DNA of 16,761 nt from Gemmatimonadota bacterium (lineage in GTDB: Bacteria; Gemmatimonadota; Gemmatimonadetes; Longimicrobiales; Gaopeijiaceae). The notes below the pieces were generated by a model, which did no database searches, was not told the DNA's origin, and worked only from the letters and a program-made list of their open reading frames with translations. Location: the NCBI GenBank assembly GCA_039589315.1, contig JBDHHQ010000088.1, positions 1 through 16,761 of the forward strand, written 5' to 3'. The position numbers and the translations under genes were made by a program. Positions 3,398-13,428 of this stretch are shown here, one piece after another; the first letter of the stretch is position 1; every line of letters starts with the position of its first letter.

Positions 3398-3426
3398 AAG
3401 TTACCCATGCGACATACCGGTGTCAA
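3398..3426 (-). promoter_or_regulatory. Sigma70-type promoter of the str operon (rpsL-rpsG-fusA-tuf)
   Basis: Perfect -35 TTGACA (3426-3421), 17-bp spacer, -10 TAACTT (3403-3398), about 100 nt upstream of rpsL. Confidence 0.8.
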
Positions 3427-3440
3427 CGGGGCAGAATGGG

Positions 3441-3469
3441 TTCAAAAGGCCCGCGCCCGCTGGTAAGAT
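3441..3469 (+). promoter_or_regulatory. Divergent sigma70-type promoter with extended -10, facing the pseudo-receiver gene
   Basis: TTCAAA (3441-3446), 17-bp spacer, TAAGAT (3464-3469) preceded by TG at 3461-3462 (TGnTAnnnT). Confidence 0.55.
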
Positions 3470-3743
3470 GGCGCCTTTCACCGCGGTGCACCTCCACCTC
3501 GTGCACGATGCGACGTCGCGAGGGATTTCGAGACAGCCGGAGCGAATGGCCAGCGCTCTGTGACGCGCCGCTCGAGCGCTCGGGCAGACCGAGGGGCCCC
3601 GGCTTCTCGGGACATCCGACGCGGTGCCGGCTCCTCGGGTGGGGGCGCGGCACGGCTCGTGCCTCCCATACGGACCGGGCCCGGCGGGTCAGGTCGCCAA
3701 CCGGGCCGTATGGCGTGGTTCAGAGATCCAGAAGGACGGATTG

Positions 3744-4175
3744 ATGCAGACGAAGAGTGTATTGATCGTCGGGGCGGACCCGGACGCCCGCGGCGCTCTC
3801 GCCGAGGGCCACCGCGACGGCGGGTACGTGGCGTTCGAGGCTGCCACCGAGTTGGACGCCCTCGAGAGGGCGAGTCTCGACCAGCCATCGTTGATCGTGG
3901 TCCGGGTCGACGAGCCCGCGCTCGACGGGTGGACGACCATCAAGCGACTGGGCGAGAGTCCCAGGACCGAGCGCATTCCCGTGGTGGCCGTTTCGGCCGC
4001 ACCCTCACCCGGGGAGCAAAGGACAGCCGCGCTTCTCGGCTGCTCGGGCCTCGCGTGCCTGGAGCCCGTCGCGAGGGTCGTGAAGCTGACGCTGGACGTG
4101 GCAGGCAAGCCCGTGGCGCGGCATGCCCGGGACAGGCCCCCAAGGGTCATCCGGCGCCGCTACGCCGGCCGTTAG
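3744..4175 (+). CDS. Stand-alone atypical response-regulator receiver (CheY/DivK-like pseudo-receiver), 143 aa
   Basis: MQTKSVLIVGADP...QPSLIVVRVDEPALDGWTTIKRLGESPRTERIPVVAVSA...LLGCSG follows the REC-domain pattern (ILIVDD / PDLILLD / MDGW / IPVIALTA / AGCDG). GAAGGA SD-like sequence upstream of ATG 3744. Confidence 0.8.
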   Translation: MQTKSVLIVGADPDARGALAEGHRDGGYVAFEAATELDALERASLDQPSLIVVRVDEPALDGWTTIKRLGESPRTERIPVVAVSAAPSPGEQRTAALLGCSGLACLEPVARVVKLTLDVAGKPVARHARDRPPRVIRRRYAGR

Positions 4176-4217
4176 CGCCTGCAGGCTCGCCCCGGGCCGG
4201 GACGCTGAGGTTCGCCA

Positions 4218-4249
4218 AAGGGGGACGCCCCGAGTGAGGCGTCCCCCTT
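4218..4249. terminator. Bidirectional intrinsic terminator between convergent rpoC and the receiver gene
   Basis: Perfect 12-bp inverted repeat aagggggacgcc (4218-4229) / ggcgtccccctt (4238-4249) with an 8-nt loop and short T-rich tails on both strands. Confidence 0.8.
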
Positions 4250-4277
4250 GTTCGGTGCCGGTCCGGAGGAGCGGCCG

Positions 4278-8572
<4,295 letters not shown>

Positions 8573-8576
<4 letters not shown>

Positions 8577-8952
8577 GCTGTAGGCACCCCAACGTGGCTG
8601 GTGGGTGATACCGCTGAACCATGCGATGCCGAGCCGACTGCACGCGCCCGGCGACTGTCTATGCCCTCGAGGGTTGTCCCCCCCAAGACCGCGTCAAATC
8701 GAGTGTAGGGGTAGGAAGGCGAGCACGGGGACCGAGGCGTACTGAAAAGCAGGTCGCGCGCTTCGCACGCGGTCTCGCGGTACGCCAAGGCGGAGCCGAA
8801 GCCACCGGAATGGCCGCTCGGCTCGCAGGCCACCGCGCGGAGCCTGACGCCGCCCTGTGCCGATTTGCCGGCACTTCGTGCCGTCGTACCGCGGTCCATC
8901 ATGAGTGCGGTGAACCCGATCCTCCGGGCCGCGGTGCTCACGCGGGCTGTGC

Positions 8953-8956
<4 letters not shown>
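8573..8956 (-). CDS. Hypothetical 127-aa ORF spanning the rpoB-rpoC spacer, overlapping both neighbours by ATGA
   Basis: ATG 8956-8954 overlaps the rpoB TGA (8955-8953), and TGA 8575-8573 overlaps the rpoC ATG (8576-8574). Open for 127 codons ([14 protein letters not shown]...HVGVPTA) with no recognisable domain. Confidence 0.35.
8736..8897. repeat. Palindrome-rich REP/MITE-like element in the rpoB-rpoC spacer
   Basis: Inverted repeat cgcggtacg (8776-8784) / cgtaccgcg (8885-8893), two GAA-loop minihairpins on the minus strand (GCGAAGC near 8760-8766; CGGCAC-GAA-GTGCCG 8869-8883), and a gtactgaaaag end resembling an IS/MITE terminus. Only one copy is visible here, and boundaries are approximate. 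Confidence 0.35.
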
Positions 8957-13152
<4,196 letters not shown>

Positions 13153-13382
13153 AGGGATCCCCCTTCCCTGGTGCGCCGGCTCGAAGAGCTCGACACACGG
13201 ATACACAGGCGCCTACGCGGCGCCAAAGGCCTGAGTCCGAAGCTGGCGCGCGTGGCGGCCCCACGCGCTGAGATCTGCGGGCACACGTTCCCCACGGCGC
13301 CGGAGGCGCCGAAGAGACCCACTGGGTGCCCGATGGTCTGGTGACCTGAAATCGTGTGCGTCCCTCGCACGGTAATCCCGTG

Positions 13383-13407
13383 CCCGGGCGCCACGTTGGC
13401 GCCCGGG
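13383..13407 (-). promoter_or_regulatory. Strong hairpin just downstream of rplL (pause/processing/attenuation element of the rplL-rpoB spacer)
   Basis: Perfect 11-bp stem cccgggcgcca / tggcgcccggg with a 3-nt loop and no U-tract. Confidence 0.5.
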
Positions 13408-13428
13408 TCAGGGTCCAGAAGTCTTGTC

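Follow-up and report, generated by a model that had tools for sequence, protein, structure and literature searches.

An open reading frame bridging rpoB and rpoC in a family of Gemmatimonadota, a candidate ribosome relay

The window analysed here is a stretch of 16,761 nucleotides from a Gemmatimonadota bacterium of the family Gaopeijiaceae (GenBank assembly GCA_039589315.1, contig JBDHHQ010000088.1). It carries rpoB and rpoC on the minus strand among the usual set of neighbours, with secE-nusG-rplKAJL upstream and rpsG-fusA downstream. The two polymerase genes are separated by a gap of 376 nt, between the end of the rpoB stop at 8953 and the start of rpoC at 8576, and the whole of this gap is covered by one ORF that runs from 8956 to 8573, with 127 codons and a stop. 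This bridge ORF lies at -4 spacing to both genes: the TGA of rpoB and the ATG of the bridge form a single ATGA, and the same motif joins the bridge stop to the rpoC start. Coordinates and translation agree with a sequence-only reading of this DNA, which had described just such an ORF filling the gap. That reading had also noted mostly G/C-ending codons in the first 70 or so and fewer distally, and we obtained a GC3 of 0.83 for codons 1–70 and 0.63 for codons 71–127. The GC2 of the bridge, however, is 0.67–0.70 compared to 0.41 in rpoB, so its codon pattern is not gene-like. All features are listed in Table 1. On the other side of rpoC, the rpoC–rpsL gap (window 3420-4277) is likewise long and GC-rich, and contains ORFs of 153 aa (minus strand, 3689-4150) and 183 aa (plus strand, 3624-4175); the 153-aa ORF had no match in NCBIfam.

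Table 1. Positions of genes and sequence features in and around the rpoB–rpoC gap of the window.
Feature	Position	Strand	Remarks
rpoB	8953..13152	-	TTG start at 13152 inferred from family alignment; ORF finder runs on to GTG at 13206
5' ATGA overlap, rpoB stop / bridge start	8953..8956	-	-4 spacing; no well-spaced Shine-Dalgarno ahead
Bridge (candidate relay) ORF	8573..8956	-	127 codons; peptide without purifying selection
Proximal spacer segment	8871..8952	-	Near-identical in sister species; hairpins predicted
Dispersed MITE/REP-like repeat	8692..8870		Unit of ~110 nt plus 69-nt module; imperfect terminal inverted repeats at 8692-8701 and 8861-8870
69-nt module of repeat (23 codons)	8758..8826		Absent from sister spacer; 68-nt relative in another repeat copy (G001:C203)
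Weak terminator-like hairpin within module	8755..8771	-	Consensus match only
C-rich tract and rpoC Shine-Dalgarno-like GGGGTG (8585-8590)	8582..8612	-	Predicted paired stem inside bridge ORF
3' ATGA overlap, bridge stop / rpoC start	8573..8576	-	
rpoC	4278..8576	-	1432 aa

The gap contains a repeat, located 85 nt from the rpoB stop. A profile of this repeat gave seven matches in the window's genome (G000), including the window copy; the others are at C85:15201-15309, C3:82284-82387, C24:377-479, C199:1596-1690, C68:17719-17817, and C12:57779-57832. Copies were also found in the sister genome and in many genomes of the family (further copies in relatives are loci L041-L067). They have a central palindrome and often lie in the sense orientation shortly (2–25 nt) after a same-strand stop codon. 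Being dispersed and multicopy, and having terminal inverted repeats, the element is MITE/REP-like, and it has no real match in Rfam. An ATGA occurs within the repeat in two of the 29 copies listed, and the repeat has no terminal ATGA. Across the family, the repeat is present in seven rpoB–rpoC spacers of at least 60 nt, four of which (L010, L142, L149, L152) lack a bridge, and a copy lies inside the bridge in 3 of 42 family bridges.

Taken by itself, the window locus is not beyond chance. The bridge frame stays open in 14 per cent of dinucleotide shuffles of this locus. The overlap with rpoC is not independent evidence either, because rpoC starts with ATGA (Met-Ile) in 127 of 128 junctions and any open frame in the right phase will end there. 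For both of these reasons the single locus is weak evidence. Its closest comparison is a sister species of the same genus, where a gap of 307 nt holds a 104-codon ORF with an ATGA overlap at both ends. Between the two spacers there are 46 substitutions and one indel of 69 nt, across which the frame persists; such substitutions would be expected to leave it open 54–57 per cent of the time. A third spacer length comes from a contig of a public sequencing run (X3) that is about 96 per cent identical to the window and has 7 differences across 8436-8631. In this contig 320 letters of the window are replaced by 95, a multiple-of-three change that is seen as lengths and not as letters, and the implied spacer is about 151 nt. 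A contig from an RNA run covers 8442-8631, which we take to show presence and not as evidence of expression. Two metagenome scans identified no further relatives.

It could therefore be that, even with a real trend in the family, this particular GC-rich gap is open incidentally and rpoC uses its own Shine-Dalgarno motif. We judge this improbable. The chance openness, the expected survival of the observed substitutions, and the automatic 3' overlap are all compatible with it, as are the origin of the 69-nt piece, a repeat module that measures 68 nt elsewhere, and the 4/7 repeat-bearing spacers without a bridge. Against these stand the phase kept at three related lengths (376, 307, and ~151 nt) and the other two frames, which hold 1+3 and 4+2 stops. 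In addition, all five long gaps in the family whose rpoB ends in ATGA carry ORFs that overlap both genes.

To look beyond the genus we compared rpoB–rpoC junctions across the family. For a discovery set, the rpoB stop and rpoC start could be placed in 128 of 130 fetched loci. Gaps of at least 30 nt were counted as long, a cut-off that was picked after viewing the gap lengths and left unchanged for the held-out set; the range for bridge starts (-11 to +12) was fixed before any statistics. A strict bridge is an ORF that runs from the rpoB stop to the rpoC ATGA. Five rows were left out before counting: L019, L082, and L242 (rpoB end missing), L168 (uncertain rpoC start), and L175 (a duplicate of L148).

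In the sixty-two long gaps of the discovery set, from forty-four genera, the frame terminating at the rpoC ATGA is interrupted by 21 stops, compared to 69 for the rpoC frame and 58 for the third frame; the reverse frames contain 38–49. The ATGA-ending frame is open in 46 of these 62 gaps. This deficit of stops is present at every distance from rpoC, and it survives dropping the last 30–50 nt (genus-level frame rotation, P = 0.001–0.016). Start codons within -4 to +12 of the rpoB stop show a similar asymmetry, with thirty-two loci having one in the bridge frame and eleven and ten in the other frames. Strict bridges were found in 28/62 gaps, while shuffles gave 9.3 ± 2.5.

We then applied the same rules to a held-out set of further genomes, which yielded 106 usable loci out of 107 and, after removing one duplicate, forty-one long gaps. 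Its family part consists of twenty-two long-gap loci from nine genera, six of which are also in the discovery set. These gaps have 3 stops in the bridge frame versus 23 and 26 in the others, and 14/22 carry strict bridges versus 4.1 ± 1.7 expected. Held-out loci of other families showed no significant excess (6/19 strict bridges vs. 4.6).

Pooling both sets, gaps in the family are at least 30 nt in 81 of 164 junctions and at most 8 nt in another 81. Strict bridges are present in 42/81 long gaps against 13.4 expected, and stops number 20 in the bridge frame versus 88 and 78 in its alternatives. When one genome was drawn per genus and the window's genus was removed, the mean was 15.9/44 compared to 6.3 (median P = 5 × 10^-5, worst draw 0.006), and a bridge was found in 19/44 genera. 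The family-wide pattern is thus beyond chance. Bridge starts are most often at -4 (sixteen cases) or -8 (eight cases). Among fifteen long gaps where the end of rpoB forms an NTGA start, the ORF from -4 ends within -7 to +8 of the rpoC start in fourteen, and in ten it ends exactly on the rpoC ATGA. One distant genus (L193, genome G102) has a 313-nt gap with a 106-codon ATGA-to-ATGA ORF of unrelated sequence, in which the other frames hold 5 and 5 stops.

The sequence-only reading had proposed checking whether spacers of relatives retain an ORF with both overlaps despite changes in length. The sister species does so, across the 69-nt indel. Of the long gaps in the family, 39/81 have no strict bridge. 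The frame is open in 64/81 gaps and interrupted by an in-frame stop in 17/81. With about half of the long gaps unbridged, a stop in the frame in seventeen of the 81, and four of seven repeat-bearing gaps lacking a bridge, a relay would be favoured but not obligatory. Bridges are scattered over several subgroups of the phylogeny (167 columns, 137/215 branches unresolved), a tree too weak to order or count gains and losses.

A few other observations came out of this survey. The first twenty-nine loci had suggested that gap lengths are biased to multiples of three, as might be expected of readthrough to a beta-beta' fusion, but this faded to 29/20/14 for remainders of 0, 1, and 2. We also rejected an apparent beta-beta' fusion in G006, as rpoB stops 50 nt ahead of rpoC. 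At this locus (L175, G006:C1 near 258488) no stop interrupts the rpoC frame over at least 1500 nt upstream, where it runs out of frame over rpoB; from stop to stop it spans 2859 codons, which is probably a by-product of high GC3. Finally, one genome of the order (G042) has a second, divergent rpoC-like match at C62:1531-2076 with 61 per cent identity, which could be a paralog or contamination.

Other junctions served as controls and were scored with a looser definition of a bridge. By this definition the rpoB–rpoC counts are 38/62 and 17/22, versus 14.2 and 5.4 expected. Three control junctions in the family were at shuffle level: nusG-rplK (2/21), rplK-rplA (2/40), and rplJ-rplL (5/41). By the same definition the rplL-rpoB junction gave 9/43 compared to 1.1 expected; a single genus contributes three of these nine, and in several cases the stop of the ORF belongs to the Shine-Dalgarno region. 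In the window itself the 276-nt rplL-rpoB gap (13149-13428, minus strand) is open in the frame ending on the rpoB TTGA, as it is in both genomes of the genus, and position +10 from the rplL stop is TTG in the sister and CTG in the window. A scan of the window's own genome with a crude gene caller found 57/185 before NTGA-start genes versus 44.4, and 10/134 versus 7.8. This mild genome-wide excess may reflect missed small genes or more relays, and because of it part of the rpoB–rpoC signal may be generic.

Outside Gemmatimonadota there was no excess of bridges (7/40 vs. 5.3, E. coli included); in this outgroup test 6/81 loci had no usable start or rpoB end, and ten loci named Gemmatimonad were left out. 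In the sister order, almost all members of its two large families (f4 and f5) have rpoB–rpoC gaps of -1 to 26 nt. The rplK-rplA gap is bimodal, at -1 or -4 in most genomes of other orders and 72–348 nt in the family (L199-L298). These long rplK-rplA gaps have no bridge ORFs, and a conserved motif right before rplA takes the place of an obvious Shine-Dalgarno; it is possibly an L1-binding site or another regulatory element.

The frame specificity of the signal bears on a second explanation, that the frame is translated and selected for ribosome cover against Rho, the repeat hairpin, or mRNA decay, and not for delivery to rpoC. Such cover would serve in any frame, yet the depletion of stops is limited to the frame of the rpoC ATGA (20 vs. 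88 and 78), and the rplK-rplA and rplJ-rplL gaps are as long and go without such bridges. Protection of this kind is unlikely in our view, though several features are consistent with it: rho is present in the genome, a C-rich and G-poor tract precedes rpoC in long gaps, the repeat module has a terminator-like hairpin (as a consensus match), and the frame is open in sixty-four gaps while just forty-two have a canonical start codon where rpoB stops. As to rho, the main copy is on C12, and G000 C32:25709-26818 holds a further rho-like match that scores under the curated cut-off.

Where the bridges start is also relevant to a third explanation, in which the bridge would be an independent upstream ORF of the bicistronic-design type that feeds rpoC and is uncoupled from rpoB. 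Such upstream ORFs have been described (PMC13285730), and GGAG, GAGG, or AGGA is found upstream of 17/42 bridge starts, supplied by the tail of rpoB. A free upstream ORF could begin anywhere in the gap, however, and the starts gather at the rpoB stop as described above; the window's bridge, moreover, has no well-spaced Shine-Dalgarno. We give this explanation little credence.

We also examined the rpoC initiation site. rpoC has its own Shine-Dalgarno-like motif, which is paired in the predicted fold of the window, and given this motif rpoC may initiate independently. The pairing of the motif is 0.56 in long gaps and 0.35 in short ones, while composition-matched shuffles give 0.53, so sequestration of the Shine-Dalgarno as a conserved structure is not supported beyond composition. 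The fold of the whole spacer is no more stable than shuffles (z = -0.32), and a search for promoter-like sites found none. Long-gap genomes share a conserved C-rich, G-poor tract at -28 to -18 ahead of rpoC, which is predicted to be able to pair with the Shine-Dalgarno (window 8582-8612 and its equivalents).

The sequence-only reading had offered two options for the bridge, an undescribed small protein or a ribosome relay across an inserted repeat in which the peptide counts for less than the open frame. The first has fared poorly. A comparison of the two species gives the bridge a pN/pS of 1.03, and fourteen close pairs give 1.04, compared to 0.09 for rpoB; substitutions are spread evenly across codon positions. 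Bridge peptides range from 12 to 127 aa and show no likeness between genera except at the C-terminus, where the likeness comes from a common RNA motif read in differing registers. No family was found in NCBIfam, Pfam, or the ESM Atlas, and a search for shorter homologs of 30–55 aa found none. The sole protein homolog found is the ORF of the sister species, which a gene caller had annotated as a hypothetical protein. That annotation and the GC3 of 0.83 over the first seventy codons are what speak for a functional small protein; with neither purifying selection nor homologs beyond the genus, the marks of a conserved one, we regard it as very improbable. Because the peptides are unrelated and drift neutrally, what matters is the open frame and not the protein. 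The second option gained ground: the gap does contain a dispersed repeat, and throughout the family open frames and starts by the rpoB stop are both commoner than expected.

Several known systems resemble the bridge in part. Mycobacterial interspersed repetitive units (MIRUs; Supply et al. 1997, as reviewed in PMC12548453 and PMC3184786) are intergenic repeats containing a short ORF with -4 overlaps to its neighbours, and this ORF has been proposed to let the insertion sit in an operon without harm downstream. The bridge is likewise a small ORF that overlaps both of its same-direction neighbours. However, the MIRU ORF is carried by the repeat, while the bridge takes its start from the rpoB stop and its stop from the rpoC start. 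The host is also a member of the Gemmatimonadota and not a mycobacterium, and the repeat has no Rfam match. Because the host is different, the sequence appears to be so too, and the flanking genes supply the start and stop, the bridge is not a MIRU, and the selected unit is the junction and not the repeat element.

Integrons provide another parallel. The short ORFs of attC sites, and ORF-11 and ORF-17 of attI1, are described as encoding non-functional peptides in which residue changes matter little, with termination-reinitiation through a hairpin-rich element raising translation of the next gene (PMC8876359). A dispensable peptide and, as proposed here, termination-reinitiation are shared with the bridge. 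Unlike those ORFs, which belong to mobile cassette arrays, the bridge lies between two essential core genes, and its frame is kept over many genera in unrelated sequences. Coupled upstream ORFs and synthetic bicistronic designs, in which a short ORF delivers ribosomes to a gene overlapped by ATGA (PMC12548453; PMC13285730), have the delivery-only role that we propose for the bridge. Those ORFs have a ribosome-binding site of their own in a leader, whereas the bridge is overlapped at both ends and apparently fed by rpoB. The Salmonella ORF mgtQ, between mgtC and mgtB, is also intergenic and small and aids translation of the next gene by RNA remodelling, but it is reported to need specific residues (PMC8092293), and the bridge has no residue conservation. 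In E. coli, the 76-nt rpoB-rpoC gap precedes an rpoC that starts with NTGA, and that frame is open there too; the difference is that no start codon lies at the rpoB stop in that frame. Among titles and abstract openings, a scope that leaves most subscription papers outside, we found no report of a relay ORF at rpoB-rpoC or in Gemmatimonadota.

Taken together, the geometry of the junction, the scarcity of stops in the bridge frame across the family, the surplus of starts in that frame where rpoB stops, and the neutral peptide make it likely, in our assessment, that the bridge ORF is a cis-acting ribosome relay which keeps the output of beta and beta' linked by termination and reinitiation. At -4 on both sides, the window's bridge lies within the short spacing (-8 to about +10) that a relay calls for, and selection acts on the frame and not the peptide. 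Published work reports that translational coupling falls steeply with distance and is almost nil by about 20 nt, that overlapping genes encode subunits of heteromeric complexes more often than expected (PMC10666635), and that -4, -1, and -8 are favoured gene spacings (PMC12548453). From these observations we infer translation of the bridge, reinitiation, unfolding of the stem, and a stoichiometric purpose. A ribosome ending at the rpoB TGA would reinitiate on the overlapping ATG and translate across the 376 nt of structured RNA, through the inserted repeat and also the stem in which the rpoC Shine-Dalgarno lies. It would then terminate on the TGA within the rpoC ATGA, and either reinitiate on rpoC or open the site for a new 30S subunit. 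Synthesis of beta' would in this way stay tied to that of beta despite a gap too long for direct coupling, and the bridge peptide would be a by-product.

A broader proposal is that relay ORFs are an evolved, repeatedly rebuilt, and sequence-agnostic device, with selection keeping or recreating a dummy ORF once the rpoB–rpoC gap in this family outgrows reinitiation, and the two subunits thereby remaining coupled in translation; we hold the case for and against this to be evenly balanced. If it is true, screens based on homology or dN/dS would miss relay ORFs, and other operon junctions may harbour a hidden class of them, of which the rplL-rpoB counts and the genome-wide NTGA excess would be hints. 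A new kind of screen suggests itself, combining asymmetry of stops between frames with starts at the upstream stop, which would catch ORFs that small-protein surveys would discard. The comparison also provides evidence, between two essential genes and over dozens of genera, of selection on an open frame alone. It is relevant, too, to the disputed question of whether ribosomes reinitiate at short range or scan over long distances, since with efficient scanning such bridges would not be needed. Relays would explain how a core operon can take up mobile repeats, and they would imply that coupling of rpoB to rpoC matters to the stoichiometry of the polymerase.
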